64,000 nt of DNA from an uncultured Actinomycetota bacterium (lineage in GTDB: Bacteria; Actinomycetota; Actinomycetes; JAHEKZ01). How positions within the stretch are numbered: the first letter of the stretch is position 1; every line of letters starts with the position of its first letter. Below the pieces are notes generated by a model that saw nothing but the letters and a program-made list of their open reading frames with translations, searched no databases and was not told the DNA's origin. The stretch spans positions 1,408,001 through 1,472,000 of the forward strand of contig CAWHIJ010000003.1 of assembly GCA_963829525.1 (NCBI GenBank), given 5' to 3'. Shown one piece after another: positions 1,333-10,706 of the stretch. Made by a program: the position numbers and the translations under genes.

Positions 1333-4068
1333 TCAGGCGTCGCCCATACCTGCGCCCGGGTCGGCGGCTCGAGGGTCGTCGAGACGATACCGGTCGAAGG
1401 CTTCCTTGACAGTCTCTCGCTTGATCTCGCCTCGGCGGGCGAGTTCTTGCAGGGTTCGCACCGTAATGGCCTCGGCGTCAATGCGGAAGTGTCGCCGAAG
1501 TGCTCCGCGGGTGTCCGACAAACCGAAGCCGTCGGTACCGAGGGTGACGTAGTCGCCCGGGACCCATGGGCGAATCAGCTCTTGTACGGCTCGCTGGTAG
1601 TCCGAGACGGCAACGACGGGGCCCTGGACGTCACCAAGTCGTCTTGTCACGTAGGCGATCTGCGGCTCAGACGCAGGGGAGAGAAGATTGGAATCGTCGG
1701 CTCTCAGCCCGTCACGGTGCAGCTCAACCCACGACGTGACAGACCAGACATCGGCGGCGACACCCCAGTCATCAGCGAGCAGTTCTTGGGCGCGCAAGGC
1801 CGCTGGCATCGCGGACCCGCTGGCCAACAGGTGCGCCCGCGTCTCGGACTCGTTAACGGCTGGGCGGTACAAGTGAAGTCCGCGAAGCAGACCGTCGACG
1901 TCGAGATCATCTGGTTCTGCTGGCTGGTCAATCGGCTCGTTGTACATCGTCAGGTAGTAGAAAATGTTCTCTGAGTTCTCGCCGTACATGCGGCGAAGGC
2001 CGTCGCGGACGATGTGCCCGATCTCGAATGCAAATGCGGGGTCGTAGGAGAGCACCGCAGGGTTGGTGGCAGCGATCAGGTGCGAGTGGCCGTCCTCGTG
2101 CTGTAGGCCCTCGCCATTCAGCGTGGTGCGCCCTGCTGTAGCCCCGATGAGGAACCCCCGGGTCATCTGGTCGGCGGCAGCCCAGAGCGAGTCGGCTGTG
2201 CGCTGGAACCCGAACATCGAGTAGAAGATGTAGATCGGGATCATCGGTTCGTCATGTGTGGAGTAAGAGCTGCCGGCTGCGATGAAGGATGACACCGAAC
2301 CCGCTTCGTTGATGCCCTGGTGCAGCAGCTGACCGTCGGTGGCCTCCTTGTACGACAACATCAGCTCGCGGTCGACGGACACGTACGTCTGTCCGTTCGG
2401 GTTGTAGATCTTCTGCACAGGGAACATTGCATCCATACCGAAGGTTCGTGCCTCGTCCGGGATGATCGGCACGATTCGGTGACCGATTTCGGGGTCCTTG
2501 AGGAGGTCTTTCAGTAGCCGGACAAAGGCCATCGTGGTGGCCACCTGCTGCTTGCCCGAACCACGTTTGGCTGCGCTGTAGGCGGACTCGCCAGGTAGCA
2601 CGAGCGGTCGGCTGGCATTGCGCCGCTTGGGCAGATGACCGCCCAGTGCCTGTCGGCGTTCCTGCAGATAGCCGGTGACATCGCTGTCTTTGTCAGGCCG
2701 GTAGTAGGGCGGCAGCTTGGCGTCGATCTGGTCATCCTCGATCGGAATCTTCAACCGGTCTCGGAAGCCCTTGAGATCTTCGAGGGTGAGCTTCTTCATC
2801 TGGTGCGTCGAGTTACGTCCTTCGAAGTGCGACCCGAGGGTCCAACCCTTGATGGTCTTGGCCAGGACCACCGTGGGCTGACCCTTGTGCTCGATGGCGG
2901 ACTGGTAGGCGGCGTGCAGTTTGCGATGGTCGTGCCCACCACGCTGGAGCGCCCAGATCTCGTCGTCGGTCCACTCCTCGACCATCTTCCGGGTTCGTGG
3001 GTCGCGACCGAAGAAATGCTCCCGGACGAAGGCGCCGTTCTCGGACTTGTACGTCTGGAAGTCGCCATCGGGAGTCGCGTTCATGACGTTCACGAGAGCG
3101 CCGGCGGAGTCCTGGGCCAGCAGGGGATCCCAACTGCGGCCCCAGATGACCTTGATGACGTTCCACCCCGCACCGCGGAAGAATGCCTCGAGCTCTTGGA
3201 TGATCTTGCCGTTGCCGCGGACGGGACCGTCCAAGCGCTGCAGGTTGCAGTTGATGACGAAGGTCAGGTTGTCGAGCTCTTCGCGCGCGGCGAGCCCGAT
3301 CGACCCGAGTGACTCGACTTCGTCCATCTCGCCATCGCCGAGAAATGCCCACACGTGCTGGTCGGAGGTGTCTTTGATCCCACGGTTGTGGAGGTAACGG
3401 TTGAACTGGGCCTGGTAGATGGCGTTGATCGGCCCCAGCCCCATCGACACCGTCGGGAACTGCCAGAAGTCTGGCATCAGGCGGGGGTGCGGGTAAGAGG
3501 GTAGACCTCCGCCAGGGTGTGACAACTCTTGCCTGAAGCCGTCCATCCGGTCTTCGTCGAGGCGTCCCTCGAGGAAGGCCCGGGCGTAGATCCCAGGGGA
3601 GGCGTGGCCTTGGATGTAGATCTGGTCACCGCCCCCGGGGTGGTCGCCACCCCGGAAGAAGTGGTTGAAGCCGACCTCGTAGAGCGAGGCGCTTGAGGCG
3701 TATGTCGAAATGTGTCCGCCCACGCCAACCCCCGGGCGTTGGGCGCGGTGCACCATGATCGCGGCGTTCCAACGCATGTAGGCGCGAAGCCGCCGTTCGA
3801 CCCACTCGTCACCGGGGAACCACGGCTCCTGCTCGGGTGTGATCGTGTTGATGTAATCGGTGGTGGTCAGTGACGGGACGCCGACATTCCGCTGACGCGC
3901 CCGCTGCAACAGGCTGAGCATGAGGTACCTGGCGCGGTAAGCCCCCTGACCATCAATGACGTCATCGAGGGAGTCGCGCCACTCCTGGGTCTCCTCGGGG
4001 TCGACGTCGACGAGCTGGGTAGGTAGGCCGCCGCTGATCAGGGGTTCGCGCTCGCGTCCTGTGTTCAC
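1333..4068 (-). CDS. aceE: Pyruvate dehydrogenase E1 component, homodimeric type
   Basis: 911 aa; [30 protein letters not shown], ThDP motif GDGEMDE...[20 protein letters not shown]. Confidence 0.98.
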
Positions 4069-5850: not shown

Positions 5851-6312
5851 ATGTCAGTCGAGGTTGGTCAGCAAGCACCAGACTTCACGCTCTCGAGTCA
5901 GCACGGTGAACCGATCAGTTTGTCGTCGTTCCGTGGCGAGAAGAACGTTGTGCTTGTCTTCTTCCCGTGGGCCTTCAGCGGCATCTGTACCGGCGAGCTC
6001 TGTGAGATCAGCGACCGCCTCGACTCGCTCGCCAACGACGACACCGTGACCCTCGCGGTGTCGTGCGACACGAAGTTCGCGCTCCGCATCTTCGCCGAGC
6101 GCGAGGCCTACACCTTCCCTCTGTTGAGCGACCACTGGCCGCACGGGGCCGTGACGCAGGCCTACGGTGTTTTCAACGATGAACTGGGCGTCGCGTACCG
6201 CGGTACCTTCGTCATCGACAAGGCAGGCATCGTTCAGTACACCATCGTGAACGGGATTGGCGACGCCCGTGACCCTGGCGAGTACGAGAAGGTCCTCGCG
6301 TCGATCGGTTGA
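5851..6312 (+). CDS. ahpE: AhpE-type 1-Cys peroxiredoxin
   Basis: APDFTL, LVFFPWAFSGICTGELCEI, LLSDHWPHG, RGTFVIDK; synteny with DUF3052 and tRNA-Val. Confidence 0.9.
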   Translation: MSVEVGQQAPDFTLSSQHGEPISLSSFRGEKNVVLVFFPWAFSGICTGELCEISDRLDSLANDDTVTLAVSCDTKFALRIFAEREAYTFPLLSDHWPHGAVTQAYGVFNDELGVAYRGTFVIDKAGIVQYTIVNGIGDARDPGEYEKVLASIG

Positions 6313-6338: not shown

Positions 6339-6411
6339 GGGCGTATAGCTCAGTTGGTAGAGCTCCGGTCTTACAAACCGGCGGTCGGGGGTTCAAGTCC
6401 CTCTGCGCCCA
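6339..6411 (+). tRNA. tRNA-Val (anticodon TAC)
   Basis: GGGCGTA acceptor pairing with TGCGCCC, D arm AGCTCAGTTGGTAGAGC, anticodon arm CCGGT-CTTACAA-ACCGG, T arm GGGGGTTCAAGTCCCTC; followed by CCG, so CCA is not fully encoded. Confidence 0.97.
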
Positions 6412-6439
6412 CCGAAAACCGCAGGTCACAGCCCCCGCG

Positions 6440-6553
6440 TCAGGCGTCGATCAGGATGGTGGTTGTGCTGTCGTCGTCGGTGTCGAGGATCAAGAACACG
6501 CGGCCTTCGAAGGTCTCAAACGACTGTGAGGCCGTTGATGCGATGTCGTCCAT
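6440..6553 (-). CDS. Putative 37-aa acidic small protein or gene remnant
   Basis: MDDIASTASQSFETFEGRVFLILDTDDDSTTTILIDA with SD-like GGGAGA upstream and GC3-biased codons. Confidence 0.4.
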   Translation of the reverse strand: MDDIASTASQSFETFEGRVFLILDTDDDSTTTILIDA

Positions 6554-6880
6554 AAAGAGATCTCCCGTGCTCGGTGCGCTCCCTGGTGCAATCGGTGACC
6601 ACCACTTTGACTTGGCGTGGTGGCGTGGCGATGGCAACAAGGTGGATAGCGAATGAACAAAATGCCGTCTTTGTACCGACCGGTTCCCCGGGGGCGGGGC
6701 GTGCGAGGCTGGTCCTTAACTCTATGAAACGCTTGTACCGCGCGGTTTGCGTGTGATCATTGGGGGGTAGGCGTTCAGAAACACAGGGGACTCAAGACGA
6801 GTCTTCTTAGGCAGTGCCGGTGGCTTGGAGGACGCGGATCCTCCTCCCCCTGGCGCAAAGATGTGAGGAGACGGCACGCT

Positions 6881-7648
6881 ATGCAGAGACGGTCGAGGAA
6901 GCTGCGCTGGAGCGCAGCGGTGGGCGGAATCGCCCTGGCCACTGCGGTCATGGCCCTTCCAGCTCAGGCGGGGGACGACAATCGGCTGCAGGCTGGTGGG
7001 AAGGGTACCGTGCTGCGGTACAACTTCGACAATGGCGAGTCGCTGAATGCCGGAACGAGGGTTCGCGACGTCAGCGGTAACCGCCACCACGGGACCGTGA
7101 TCGTCTCCGGGAGGGGGAACCTGAGGTCCGTGCCAGGGGTGACAGGTCGCGCCGCAAAGTTCCCCCGCAAGTGCAAGGGTTGTGGCCGGGGGATCATCGA
7201 GGCCAGTGATGCCCGTGGCCTCGAGCCACGCAAACGCGCCTTCAGTTTCGGCGCCGCTGTAAGGGTCACCGACAGACAAGCCGCTCGCGGCAAGGACCCG
7301 AACATCATCCAAAAGGGGCTTCTCAAGCAACGAGGCGGCCAGTGGAAACTGGAGCTCGTGGGATCTCGCCCCCGTTGCATCATTCAAGGTCGCGCCGGCA
7401 AGGTAGAGGTCAGCTCGACCGTCTCAGTAGACGATGGAACGTGGCACTCGCTGCAGTGCGCCCGCAAGGGACCGACTGTCACATTGCGCATCGACGGCGT
7501 GGTGGTGAACCAGGGCACCGGCCGGACCGGTCGCATCGTCAATGACGCGCCGGTGCGCCTTGGCGGCAAAGGAGTTGCCGGCAGCGGCGGAAACGACCAG
7601 TATCACGGTGCACTTGACAATGTGTTTGTGAAGATACGGCGGCGCTGA
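6881..7648 (+). CDS. Secreted LamG-like jellyroll (concanavalin A-like) domain protein
   Basis: Signal peptide ending ...ALPAQA; LRYNFD, DVSGNRHHG, NIIQKG, DDGTWH, LRIDG, YHGALDNV. Confidence 0.8.
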   Translation: MQRRSRKLRWSAAVGGIALATAVMALPAQAGDDNRLQAGGKGTVLRYNFDNGESLNAGTRVRDVSGNRHHGTVIVSGRGNLRSVPGVTGRAAKFPRKCKGCGRGIIEASDARGLEPRKRAFSFGAAVRVTDRQAARGKDPNIIQKGLLKQRGGQWKLELVGSRPRCIIQGRAGKVEVSSTVSVDDGTWHSLQCARKGPTVTLRIDGVVVNQGTGRTGRIVNDAPVRLGGKGVAGSGGNDQYHGALDNVFVKIRRR

Positions 7649-7677
7649 GAGACAAGTAGTTCGACAGCGCCATCAAG

Positions 7678-7707
7678 CGGCGGTCGGGGGTTTGGTTCCT
7701 CTGCGCC
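7678..7707 (+). repeat. Degenerate direct repeat of the tRNA-Val 3' half (att-like scar)
   Basis: CGGCGGTCGGGGGTT-tggtt-CCTCTGCGCC versus tRNA 6379-6409 CGGCGGTCGGGGGTT-caagtc-CCTCTGCGCC. Confidence 0.7.
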
Positions 7708-7721
7708 GCCCCCACGTGAGC

Positions 7722-7767
7722 GCACCAGTTGAGGCGGGGCCCAACACGGCCCCGCCTCAACTGGTGC
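7722..7767. terminator. Perfect 20-bp inverted repeat, probable bidirectional terminator
   Basis: GCACCAGTTGAGGCGGGGCC-CAACAC-GGCCCCGCCTCAACTGGTGC between convergent genes. Confidence 0.85.
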
Positions 7768-7772
7768 AGGGT

Positions 7773-7835
7773 TCACTTCTTCTTCTTTTTCTTGTCTTTT
7801 TTCTTGTCCTTCTTCTTGCTGGACTTCTTTCCCAT
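7773..7835 (-). CDS. Putative 20-aa lysine-rich microprotein MGKKSSKKKDKKKDKKKKKK
   Basis: SD GAAAGGGG 7 nt before the ATG, extended -10-like TGCTACGTT at 7880-7872, hairpin 5 nt after the stop. Confidence 0.6.
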   Translation of the reverse strand: MGKKSSKKKDKKKDKKKKKK

Positions 7836-7995
7836 GGATACGCCCCTTTCGTGGCTGACACGTGCGTCCGAAACGTAGCAAATGAATTGACCCTGAGCCA
7901 TCGTTGGTTGAGCGCTCGTTGGTCCCCTGTGCCAGGCGCCGGCATGGGTCCGGCATGGATACTGTGGCCATGCCATCTAAGTCAGCGATGAACGG

Positions 7996-8343
7996 ATGCA
8001 GATCATGCACACTTGGTTGTTGCTTGCCGCGGCTATTGCGTGTGAGGTAACTGCGACGGCCTACCTTCGCGTCACCGATGGATTCACGAAGCTGTGGCCA
8101 TCGTTGATTGTCGTCGCAGGTTACGGCGTTTCGTTCTATCTGCTCTCCTTGATCATGCGAACAGGAATACCGGCCGGCATCGTCTACGCGATCTGGTCAG
8201 CGTTCGGGATCGCGTTGGTGACGATTGTTGGGATGGCAACCTACGGCGACCAGATCACCCCGGTGACGGGTGTGGGTTTAGCCGTGATCGTGATCGGAGT
8301 CATTCTGGTTCAAGTCGGCAACGTCGGTGAAGTCGCAAGCTAG
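7996..8343 (+). CDS. SMR-family small multidrug efflux protein (EmrE/Mmr-like)
   Basis: WLLLAAAIACEV (membrane Glu), DGFTKLWPS, YGVSFYLLS, VYAIWSAFG; four hydrophobic segments. Confidence 0.92.
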   Translation: MQIMHTWLLLAAAIACEVTATAYLRVTDGFTKLWPSLIVVAGYGVSFYLLSLIMRTGIPAGIVYAIWSAFGIALVTIVGMATYGDQITPVTGVGLAVIVIGVILVQVGNVGEVAS

Positions 8344-8372
8344 AAGCGGCTCGATGCAGCGGCCGAAGGGCC

Positions 8373-8657
8373 CTAGACGTCTTGCCACTCGCCGTCTATC
8401 CATTCGGGCTCGCCGTTCAGCAGCGGGACCATCTCAGCCTGCCACCACTTGTCTTGCTTCGGGTCGTCCGCAAGGGCTTCGTACTGTGCCTTGGACTCGA
8501 ACCGGATGGCGACGACAATCCGTCCGTCCCCGGCGATGAGCACCCTTTGGTCGACATATCCGGCCGCTTCACCACGTTCCTTGGCCCATCGTTTTGCCCG
8601 TTCCTCCATTTCTTCCACTGTGCCGTTGATGTTGGCGATCATCACGGTTCCGTACAT
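8373..8657 (-). CDS. Hypothetical protein, possibly ABM-like dimeric alpha-beta barrel
   Basis: 94 aa, SD GGAGG; VAIRFESKAQYEALADDPKQDKWW...GEPEWIDGEW. Confidence 0.7.
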   Translation of the reverse strand: MYGTVMIANINGTVEEMEERAKRWAKERGEAAGYVDQRVLIAGDGRIVVAIRFESKAQYEALADDPKQDKWWQAEMVPLLNGEPEWIDGEWQDV

Positions 8658-8796
8658 GGGGAGCCTCCAGTGAGAAATGGCAGCGTCCGGCTGTCACGGG
8701 CGTCGCCTGTGACAGTGGTACCCCTGATTCAGCGGAACCGGAACCGCCCGTCGTGATCATCTACCGACGAATCCGTCGCCCGGCTACAGTGCCCGC

Positions 8797-9965
8797 GTGA
8801 GCAGCCCCACCGTAGGCGACGTTGTCGCCGCACTCGATGCCCTCTACCCGCCGCAGGCTGCTGAGGATTGGGACTCAGTCGGCCTGACGTGTGGGGACCG
8901 ATCCGTGCCGGTTCGCAAAGTCATGTTCGCCGTCGACCCGTTGCCGGTGGTCGTCGATGAGGCGCTCATGTGGGGCGCAGACCTGTTGGTCACGCATCAC
9001 CCTCTCCTCCTTCGACCCGACCCACAGCGTGGCCACCGACGACTGGAAAGGGTCGGTGCTGCATCGGCTGATCCGCGGCGGCTGTGCGCTGTACACCGCT
9101 CACACCAACGCTGACGTCGCCCATGACGGGGTGAACGACGCACTGGCCGAAGCCCTGGGGCTGGCCAACCCGCGGCCGCTGCGTGCTCGGCCTCAGGAGC
9201 CGGCCGACAAGCTCGTCACGTTCGTCCCGCCCGACCATGCGGACGCTGTGATCGCCGCTTTGCAGCGAGTGGGCGCCGGAACGATAGGCAACTACACGGG
9301 TTGCGCGTGGAAAGTGTCGGGCACGGGAACGTTCACGCCGGGAGAGGGCGCCAACCCGATCATCGGAAGAGTGGGGCGTACCGAGGTGACCGCAGAGGCG
9401 CGCGTCGAGATGCTCGTACCGCGGATGCTGCGATCGGCAGCCCTCGACGCCGTGCGGTCTGCGCATCCCTACGAGGAGGTGGCGGTAGACGTCATTGAGC
9501 TTTCCGCTGCCCCTAGCGGAACCGGTCTTGGGCGAGTCGGCGACCTCAATGGTTCGGTACCGCTTGCAGCATTCGCTCGACTGGTGGCGGATGCACTGCC
9601 ATCGACGCCGGCCGGAGTGCGCTTCCATGGTGACCCTGACACCGTCGTTGAACGCGTGGCCGTGTGTGGTGGTTCTGGTGACGGCTTGCTGGCTGAAGCC
9701 CTCCGTGCCGGTGTCGACGCCTTCGTTACAGCAGATCTACGTCACCATCGGGCCTCCGAAGCGCTGGCGGCTGGCGGCCCCGCGCTCGTCGATCCGGGAC
9801 ACTGGGCGAGCGAATGGCCTTGGCTTCCGGTGGCTGCCGACCGTCTCCTTCATGCGCTGGCGCGCACCCGACCCGAGCGCCGCTACGGTGGAGACACACA
9901 TCTCAACCGTGGTGACCGACCCCGTGACCGGCCACGTCCGGTCCAGTCCCGAGGAGGACCGCTGA
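8797..9965 (+). CDS. Nif3-like (DUF34) dinuclear metal-centre hexameric protein; two apparent frameshifts near 9018 and 9865
   Basis: AEDWDSVGL...LLVTHHPLLL, then HTNAD, HPYEE, VAVCGGSG, ADLRHH, HWASEWPWL in a second frame, then VETHISTVVTDP...stop 9965 in a third frame. Confidence 0.88.
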
Positions 9966-10706
9966 AGGCATCACCGGCAGAACAAGCCCGACTGCTCGAC
10001 CTGCAGGCGATCGACCAGACGCTGGCGCACCTCGAGCACCGACGCCGCAACCTGCCTGAGGTTGCCGAGCTGAGAGATCTCGCAACGCAGCAGCAGTCGG
10101 TGCATTCTCAGCTGGTGGCTGCCCAGACCGAAGCCAGCGACATCGCGCGTGAGCAGGACAAGCTCGAGTCTGACATCGATCAGGTACGTCAGCGGATGAC
10201 ACGCGACCAGCAGCGTCTGGAATCGGGCGCGATCACCTCGGCCAAGGACCTGGAGAGCCTTCAGCACGAAGTGGGTTCACTACATAAGCGCCAGCGGGAC
10301 CTCGAGGACGTTGAGTTGGAAGTGATGGAGCGACTCGAGGAAGCTGAGAAGAAGGCCACAGCGCTCGGCGAAGAGCAGACGCGCCTGGCCGCCGCCGTCG
10401 AAGACACCGAGCGACGACGCGTGGCAGCACACGCCGCCATCGACAAGGACGTGGAGTTTCGCTCAGCGACAGCGGGCAACCGTGGTGCCCGATATTGGCG
10501 CAGAGCTACTCGCCTACTACGAGAAGCTCCGGGGACAGCTCGACGGCATCGCTGCGGTCTCGATCAAGCAGCGACGGTGTGACGGGTGCCGCCTGGACCT
10601 GTCAGCCACAGACGTCGACCGAATCCGCGCTGCGGCTGAAGACGAGATCATTCGCTGCGAGGAGTGCCGGCGGATCCAGGTGCGCACCGCAGAATCTGGG
10701 CTCTGA
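9962..10706 (+). CDS. Coiled-coil C4-type zinc-ribbon protein (CT398/Rv2229c-like); probable CTG start and one frameshift near 10468
   Basis: (L)KASPAEQARLLDLQAID, long coiled coil, then ELLAYYEKLR...CDGCRLDL...CEECRRI in the next frame; SD GAGGAGG before CTG at 9962. Confidence 0.85.

Follow-up and report, generated by a model that had tools for sequence, protein, structure and literature searches.

A conserved lysine-only micro-gene in an uncultured actinomycete, whose predicted product may bind polyphosphate or other polyanions

A stand-alone micro-gene between a tRNA-Val side and an SMR gene

We describe here a micro-gene of 20 codons in the genome of an uncultured actinomycete (2.96 Mb, 65% G+C), and weigh what its predicted product may do. 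The window, by which we mean the whole stretch of 64,000 nucleotides (nt) analysed, is G000:C3:1408001-1472000 (contig CAWHIJ010000003.1), and positions below are counted within it unless a contig is named. The micro-gene lies on the minus strand and carries no annotation, having been missed by gene callers. Its open reading frame (ORF) runs from 7835 to 7773, with a TGA stop at 7775-7773, and is read both from the window and from the orthologues presented below. The product is MGKKSSKKKDKKKDKKKKKK, in which 14 of 20 residues are lysine, with a longest lysine run of six, Asp and Ser interrupting the lysines, and a net charge of about +12. Ahead of the ORF on the same strand lies the box TTTGCTACGTT (7882-7872), which contains TGCTACGTT (7880-7872) and is predicted to be an extended -10 element (TGn followed by TACGTT, a hexamer of the TANNNT type). 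It is followed by a leader of about 30 nt (7871-7836), which holds a CACGT conserved in orthologues (7864-7860) and the Shine-Dalgarno (SD) sequence GAAAGGGG (7850-7843), located 7 nt ahead of the ATG at 7835. Beyond the stop, a GC-rich hairpin (7767-7722) with a perfect stem of 20 bp (arms 7767-7748 and 7741-7722, loop of 6 nt) begins after 5 nt and has no T-run. These are the four elements that the original prediction had named, an extended -10-like element, an SD, an ORF with 14 lysines and a 20-bp hairpin 5 nt past the stop, and all are found where it had placed them. The predicted RNA fold of 7862-7715 has an energy of -64.4 kcal/mol (z = -6.7), and none of 200 shuffled sequences is equally stable. 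A scan for consensus sigma-70 promoters and terminators flags neither the box nor the hairpin, as is to be expected of a promoter lacking a -35 hexamer and a hairpin lacking a T-run.

The unit is rare within its own genome. The sequence TTTGCTACGTT occurs once in the whole genome, and in a six-frame translation only four sites have at least 8 lysines in a 15-residue window; the other three lie inside longer open frames, leaving the micro-ORF as the sole stand-alone one. Two longer versions of the coding region were considered and rejected. The frame of the micro-ORF is open upstream as far as an ATG at 7976, which would give an ORF of 67 amino acids (aa), and in four relatives the box can be read as TTG-CTA-CGT, giving an 'MLRS...' extension that starts at the TTG of the box. 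The frame of the box with respect to the ORF differs among orthologues, three being seen, and this inconsistency speaks against both extensions as coding sequence. On its own strand the micro-ORF is followed by no gene, the features that come next being convergent, so that the product of the micro-gene itself would be the output.

The surroundings were read by Pfam and tRNA scans of the window. On the minus strand lie ppk2 (450-1481), 6.3 kb from the micro-ORF, and aceE (1333-4068); on the plus strand follow a DoxX protein gene and then a Bcp/AhpC-TSA gene (5851-6312), and next to them tRNA-Val(tac) (6339-6413). After this tRNA gene comes a stretch of 1.3 kb (6414-7676) which holds a plus-strand ORF with a LamG domain and a signal-like N-terminus (6863-7648) and is ended by a 31-nt plus-strand copy of the 3' half of tRNA-Val (about 7677-7707). 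The congeners are without such a stretch, which looks like a small insertion at the tRNA gene with a duplicated attachment site. On the other side, an SMR transporter gene (7996-8343, plus strand) diverges from the micro-ORF across a spacer of 160 nt, and an ORF of 124 codons lies between the SMR gene and a NIF3/CT398 fusion (8891-10582). An Rfam scan over 6500-9000 on both strands, with E up to 1, gives as its sole match the A-rich CrcZ, whose 15 bits fall far short of the threshold of 95 and amount to noise; neither a guanidine riboswitch nor another Rfam element is found in it ahead of the SMR gene. Elsewhere on the same contig, an ORF of about 510 codons (G000:C3, about 162981, minus strand) opens with the lysine-rich stretch MAKKKKEKKGKRKKHKRAGRPP..., about 30 residues ahead of a second Met (MSNVGT...). 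This opening is kept in four congeners (L069, L071, L073 and L078), and may represent either a basic extension in frame with the protein or a micro-ORF upstream of it.

Conservation and coding signature among congeners

We then present the distribution of the micro-gene in related genomes. Of the other 13 genomes of the genus, seven are matched in a blastn search with 7650-8000 against 41 relatives; six of these matches cover exactly the stretch from box to ORF, and the one in G007 covers the tRNA-side stretch only. A codon pattern finds the ORF in 7 of 20 genomes of the family, all of this genus and the window's own included. With the SMR gene as anchor, the syntenic site was read in all 14 genomes of the genus: box and ORF are both present in seven and both absent in the other seven. 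In the seven carriers the unit is kept between tRNA-Val(tac) and the SMR gene, with the hairpin of the relatives sitting between the stop of the ORF and the 3' end of the convergent tRNA-Val, and at the same site G007 has a gene of about 130 codons instead. The orthologous peptides have 13-28 aa, namely MGKKSSKKKSDKKKDKKGKKKGKKKK, MGKKSSKKSSDKKDKKGKKKKKKK, MGKKSSKKKSDKKKDKKDKKKKGKKKK (in two genomes), MAKKSSKKKGDKKKDKKDKKKKGKKKKK and the shortened MGKKPSKKKDKKK, and share the N-terminus M-G/A-K-K-S/P-S-K-K. Among these species, whose SMR neighbour proteins are only 64-89% identical, the box is invariant over its 11 nt in all seven orthologues. Every one of them also has an SD-like sequence about 5-8 nt ahead of the start, GGAAGG(G/A)G or, in G013, GGAAGCAGGG; the starts are ATG or GTG and the stops TGA or TAG.

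The changes between the seven orthologues have the pattern of coding sequence. Pairwise differences at codon positions 1, 2 and 3 number 31, 24 and 89, and the codon differences comprise 74 synonymous versus 37 non-synonymous ones. Lysine is encoded by 97 AAG versus 12 AAA codons, with only A or G and never C or T in the third position; the AAG share of 89% is close to the 86% found genome-wide, and therefore reflects ordinary coding bias rather than selection for A-richness. A metagenome contig that is 93.3% identical over 2411 nt, with 136 mismatches, encodes an identical peptide, the only changes in its ORF being three from AAA to AAG and one of the stop from TGA to TAG. As for the hairpin, 7 of its 12 consensus pairs have compensatory variants, in which both sides are changed. 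On the whole, these comparisons show the micro-ORF to be under protein-level constraint, within a self-contained and conserved cassette of predicted expression signals. The original prediction had held that a full set of signals around such an ORF is not due to chance, and had set the conservation of frame, start and SD in relatives as a test beforehand. Both points are borne out by the occurrence of the unit at the same site in 7 of 14 congeners, by the conservation of frame, start and SD in the seven orthologues, and by the four lysine-dense sites in the genome; with box, stop and hairpin conserved as well, the idea of a stand-alone transcription unit is likewise well supported by these comparisons.

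Some features of the box touch its regulation. Its conservation at 11 of 11 positions goes well past the needs of a -10 element, CACGT is found 7-8 nt downstream of it in five of the seven orthologues, and RNAalifold pairs UUUGCU of the box with AGCAAG of codons 6-7, all of these pairs being invariant even though Ser can be encoded in six ways. A second element, either a site for a regulator or one at the RNA level, may overlap the predicted promoter.

For the age of the micro-gene we refer to a PPK2 protein tree of 12 genomes of the genus and 2 outgroup genomes, a single-gene tree with several weak forks, in which G005 and G013 are unplaced. All five placed carriers fall in one clade of seven genomes (support 100/99), which also includes the non-carriers G007 and G003, and the other five non-carriers stand outside it. 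This distribution is most simply explained if the gene was gained once, where the subclade begins, and was later lost twice. It appears to have been lost at least twice, and looks young and dispensable.

Wider searches return few further members. A profile of the seven orthologues run over 401 genomes of the class finds four congeners only and misses three known members, an insensitivity by which it says little on absence. A scan for the N-terminal codon pattern across genome contigs matches at least 120 stretches; the 80 loci read from it include three members, all already known, the remainder being chance matches in low-GC genomes. Across metagenome contigs, a scan for box plus start matches 48 stretches, with three members among them. 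A collection of 5.8 billion proteins holds just two mis-called, N-terminally extended versions of the micro-ORF, and a search of sequencing runs lists DNA contigs labelled as sediment, freshwater-sediment or biofilm metagenomes, with no RNA run among them.

Lysine-only look-alikes in other actinobacteria

Overall, the 12 peptides read, seven orthologues and five look-alikes described here, contain 182 lysines and no arginine, in a setting where the long open frames of the window's genome have 1.8% Lys and 8.7% Arg, that is K/(K+R) = 0.17. The net charge varies from +7 to +20 across the 12, with no fixed charge kept. That lysine alone is used, in a genome with so strong a preference for arginine, suggests a partner specific for lysine.

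The look-alikes come from two peptide patterns. The pattern M-x-KK-xx-KKK matches 41 of the 401 class genomes; the 29 loci read for it are 17 genes of the 24-aa ribosomal protein bL37, four micro-ORFs of the genus and eight others, and of three matches without loci, fetched separately, two are N-termini of PPK2. The pattern KKK-(G/D/E...)-KKK matches 24 of the 401, and among the 18 loci read five are stand-alone micro-ORFs. These five span four other genera and four families: MGKKKKDKKKKGKKGKKGK in G016, which belongs to the same family and a different genus, MGKKKDTKDKKKKDKKKKDKKKKDKKKKSKKGKKK in G399, MAKKKDKKKDKKKSKKK in G061, MSKKKDKKKDKKKKKK in G093 and MSKKKKDKKKDKKKKKK in G178, the last two being both of the two genomes of one genus. 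The genomes of G061 and G399 are rated 100% complete. Every look-alike has an SD 6-9 nt ahead of its start and a GC hairpin soon past its stop, and the final 14 residues of the G093 peptide are identical to those of the window peptide. No context is common to them, the neighbours being a peroxiredoxin gene, pntB, a DUF72 gene and a TetR gene. The original prediction had proposed a pattern search across actinobacterial genomes, which does recover similar micro-ORFs with SD and hairpin in four other genera; their contexts are unrelated, and they may be homologues of the window gene or convergent inventions. Judged by these sequences, similar micro-genes seem to arise repeatedly in other actinobacteria.

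A separate observation concerns the upstream regions of the K/D micro-ORFs in G093 (L270, 1380-1470), G178 (L271, 1380-1470) and G061 (L267, 1400-1480). Each has two tandem 18-bp palindromes GTTGAC-N6-GTCAAC plus a half site, in what looks like an operator array. This array is not present in the window's genus.

Comparison with bL37 and other small basic proteins

Searches of Pfam (E up to 10), NCBIfam and PDB sequences with the micro-peptides give no matches, in agreement with the earlier remark that no named family could be recognised. Histone H1-like proteins of the Hc2/AlgP type, which exceed 100 aa and consist of Lys/Ala/Pro repeats, were considered and set aside: Pfam gives nothing for the micro-peptides at E up to 10, the 12 of them have 13-35 aa, and Ala or Pro is absent from them or occurs once at most. 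The literature reached by peptide string and by keywords for lysine-rich or polylysine small proteins describes no such gene; supplementary tables of small ORFs (e.g. from M. tuberculosis Ribo-seq), which lay outside this scope, may hold similar ORFs.

The closest known protein in kind is bL37. The sections of PMC5876184 that describe it present a peptide of 24 residues, made up of a helix at the N-terminus and a loop at the C-terminus, which 23S rRNA helices near H89 enclose in a pocket formed by H39/H40/H41-42/H72/H89. The likeness is that both are tiny, very basic, confined to Actinobacteria and frequently overlooked in gene calling, and that the first nine residues of the micro-peptide resemble some bL37; the difference is that bL37 is Arg-rich with a fixed length of 24 aa, whereas the micro-peptide is lysine-only, variable in length and patchy within its genus. 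The blastn search also touched a 24-aa ORF of another family, MAKKSRKKKARKKNKANHGKRPNS, which NCBIfam identifies as bL37 at 40.7 bits. Neither the window peptide nor two orthologues match the model NF047428 (ribo_Myco_bL37, cut-off 30 bits) at E up to 10, whereas the bL37 from L011, run as positive control, scores 40.7 bits. The genome has its own canonical bL37, MSKRARKRRDRKKKKANHGNRPTS, of 24 aa (C3:1029617-1029682, 43.5 bits), 386 kb from the micro-ORF on the same contig. Aligned with bL37 by hhalign, the profile of the micro-peptides reaches a probability of 18% over 9 columns. The motif A-N-H-G-x-R-P is invariant in six aligned bL37, and the micro-peptides are without it and end in Lys runs. 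With a separate canonical copy, no match to the model and the motif of the C-terminal loop missing, we reject the micro-ORF as the bL37 gene of this genome.

Polyphosphate-binding motifs and the tails of PPK2

It is of interest to compare the micro-peptides with known binders of polyphosphate (polyP). As given in the portions of PMC12345225 that deal with the motif, a 20-residue window fits the PASK rule when D/E/S/K make up at least 75% of it and one or more of these residues is Lys, and a K-to-R exchange abolishes the polyP shift of PASK motifs. The original prediction had noted a PASK-type composition, and indeed D/E/S/K make up 18 of the 20 residues of the window peptide (90%), with a range from 74% to 94% over the 12 peptides. 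For P. aeruginosa, the relevant part of PMC12077175 reports validated Lys-repeat binders of polyP with 9 Lys per 20 residues and 4 consecutive ones, the criterion being at least 3 consecutive Lys; the window peptide has 14 per 20 and a run of six. Thus the micro-peptides resemble the PASK and KPM motifs, as far as these sources describe them, both in composition and in that lysine dependence without arginine substitution is mirrored by their lysine-only make-up. They differ in that the known motifs are segments of large proteins, whereas here the motif is the entire predicted product.

A further likeness is found at the N-terminus of PPK2. In two other actinobacterial families PPK2 opens MAKKRKKKKAKKH... 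(MAKKRKKKKAKKHDD...) and MAKKSHKKKDGAK..., and two PPK2 paralogues from sister genera open MAKTKKKHPKPG... and VGKKKHHHKG.... A survey with a query that includes the tail finds at least 4 Lys in the first 20 residues in 86 of 120 proteins, a count that the query itself biases. When the catalytic domain alone serves as query, a 12-residue stretch of the tail with at least 4 Lys is present in 50 of 120 proteins; another 42 have tails without a Lys cluster (many of them His/Lys-rich) and 28 are called with almost no tail, the tails totalling 387 K, 183 R and 177 H. The PPK2 enzymes of an actinobacterial clade (loci L284, L285, L311 and L304; proteins P0005-P0211) often bear a Lys/His tail (MAKKKHKHK..., MGKKKSGKKKK...) ahead of a linker of about 25-30 residues; we know of no published description of such tails. 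The opening style M-A/G-K-K-K/S-x-K-K-K-D is common to tails and micro-peptides, with Arg scarce in both, and the PPK2 P0060 and the micro-ORF of G399 both begin with the eight residues MGKKKDTK. The tails are joined through the linker to an enzyme, whereas the micro-peptide would be free. In G016 (L306, G016:C5, 1347-1500), a 38-codon ORF opening MGKKSKKKKK lies in a low-GC patch, overlapping the start region of PPK2 one frame off, at a run of eight A. This offset could be a frameshift, a slippage site, an assembly error or a natural split of tail and enzyme.

The window's genus has a single PPK2; congeners that lack the micro-ORF have its gene about as far from the locus as carriers do, and PPK1 is found in all six carrier genomes tested.

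A free polycation and its alternatives

Our favoured explanation, held tentatively and with slightly less than even confidence, is that of a separately transcribed and translated micro-gene which yields a free polycation, with polyP as the favoured partner. Transcription from the extended -10 box (7882-7872) would give an mRNA of about 140 nt, the strong SD 7 nt before the ATG would load ribosomes, and the 20 codons would give a disordered, lysine-only polycation, while the GC hairpin would end the transcript and separate the micro-gene from the convergent tRNA-Val side. The peptide would then diffuse and bind polyanions in trans. Most specifically, it would bind polyP as a free version of the oligolysine tail found at the N-terminus of many actinobacterial PPK2, and may coat, nucleate or tether polyP or buffer its charge. 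The parts of this proposal differ in strength. The gene is very probably real and translated, and its product likely acts as a polycation that binds polyanions; that polyP is the main partner is possible, though less likely than not. We infer that polyP is nevertheless the partner with the best specific support, drawn from the specificity for lysine, from the rules on composition and from the PPK2 tail as an analogue in cis, with the ribosome, other RNA and DNA as further candidates.

Several observations weigh against this proposal. The gene is known here from DNA sequence alone. Tracts of (AAG)n slip by threes, so that an in-frame change of length by itself is no proof of coding; for this reason what carries the case for coding is the pattern at silent sites together with the SD, the start and the stop. 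Two of the seven genomes in the subclade (by a single-gene tree) lack the gene, and in G013 it has only 13 codons. The look-alikes in other genera may owe their likeness to convergence and not to common descent with the window gene. As for polyP, the link is by analogy, and oligolysine binds any polyanion. The nearby ppk2 had been offered, as speculation, in the original prediction; the gene is there, and as a functional argument its proximity finds no support, since congeners without the micro-ORF have the same PPK2 gene in the same region, the PPK2 tail is acidic in all 12 genus genomes read whether the micro-ORF is present or not, and G093 and G178 bear a look-alike micro-ORF and have no PPK2. 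A K-tailed PPK2 in genomes where the micro-ORF is missing was looked for and not found, giving no complementary pattern, and the presence of PPK1 is non-discriminating, being expected of most actinobacteria.

Among the alternatives, the least unlikely is a general counter-ion of nucleic acids, in which the peptide would coat DNA or bulk RNA like a free histone H1-type tail, with no special relation to polyP. A lysine-only composition is typical of H1-like tails, and a stand-alone gene with a strong SD suits such a role; the A/P-containing repeats of the H1, AlgP or HupB type and any Pfam match are missing, however, neither the locus nor the contexts of the look-alikes have a tie to nucleoid genes, and the close likeness to PPK2 tails would be left unexplained. 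Somewhat less probable is an accessory ribosome-bound micro-protein, which could have diverged from bL37 as a paralogue, mimic its N-terminal helix or be a functional analogue of bS22/Thx/eL41. It draws on the shared size class, on the agreement of the N-terminus M-A/G-K-K-S-x-K-K-K with MAKKSRKKK in bL37 of another family of the same class, and on the burial of the bL37 helix in 23S rRNA, which the structural part of PMC5876184 describes. The canonical bL37 elsewhere in the genome, the failure of NF047428 to match, the low hhalign probability over nine columns and the missing ANHG.RP tail all speak against it, and a length of 13-28 aa, zero Arg and absence from half of the genus are unlike core ribosomal proteins.

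The remaining alternatives leave the peptide without a role of its own or give it a regulatory one. We consider it improbable that the ORF is a functionless relic or neutral by-product, either the orphaned 5' end of a lost K-tailed gene (e.g. PPK2) or an AAG repeat that has expanded and is open by chance. Youth and dispensability (one subclade, losses, the truncation in G013) would fit this, and the K-rich 38-codon ORF of G016, one frame off the PPK2 body, shows how a tail can split from its enzyme; yet box, SD and start are kept and change is biased to silent sites across species with neighbour proteins as diverged as those of the SMR gene, and what follows the ORF is a hairpin and a tRNA, not PPK2-like sequence. 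A shade more improbable still is that the RNA is the product, as an A-rich small RNA, a protein sponge or a translation-dependent sensor of Lys-tRNA supply, the peptide being incidental. The short predicted transcript, structured at its end, and AAG repeats with ARN periodicity are in its favour, whereas the restriction of Lys third positions to A or G, the use of AAG at the coding bias of the genome, and the conserved SD, start and stop argue for the peptide. To our knowledge Actinobacteria are generally without Hfq, which counts in the same direction. Finally, a lysine leader-peptide attenuator that controls a downstream gene is very remote. Like the lysine and polycysteine leader ORFs, the micro-ORF is short, dominated by one codon family and closely followed by a terminator-like hairpin; unlike them, it has no co-directional gene downstream, the convergent tRNA-Val (here the copy of its 3' half) and convergent genes coming next, and downstream of the look-alikes the neighbours vary, most of them being convergent. 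In the minimum-energy and centroid folds the terminator alone appears, no dedicated search for an alternative pairing having been made.

Implications

Genes so small and of such low complexity escape gene callers, HMM libraries and tryptic proteomics. If its product is made, the micro-gene would be a very compact polycation gene with its own expression signals, and polyP is the one partner for which a lysine specificity of this kind has been measured. The likeness to PPK2 tails may also explain how polyP enzymes find their polymer. As a broader and more speculative view, which we regard as unlikely in its full extent, free oligolysine micro-proteins could be an overlooked and repeatedly evolving class of soluble adaptors for polyP and other polyanions, the in trans counterpart of the Lys/His tails of PPK2, which in Actinomycetes would arise repeatedly, sometimes through the split of tail and enzyme at a slippery A-run, and turn over fast within genera. 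With one probable gain, several losses and distant look-alikes, the family would offer a tractable case of the birth and turnover of a micro-gene.

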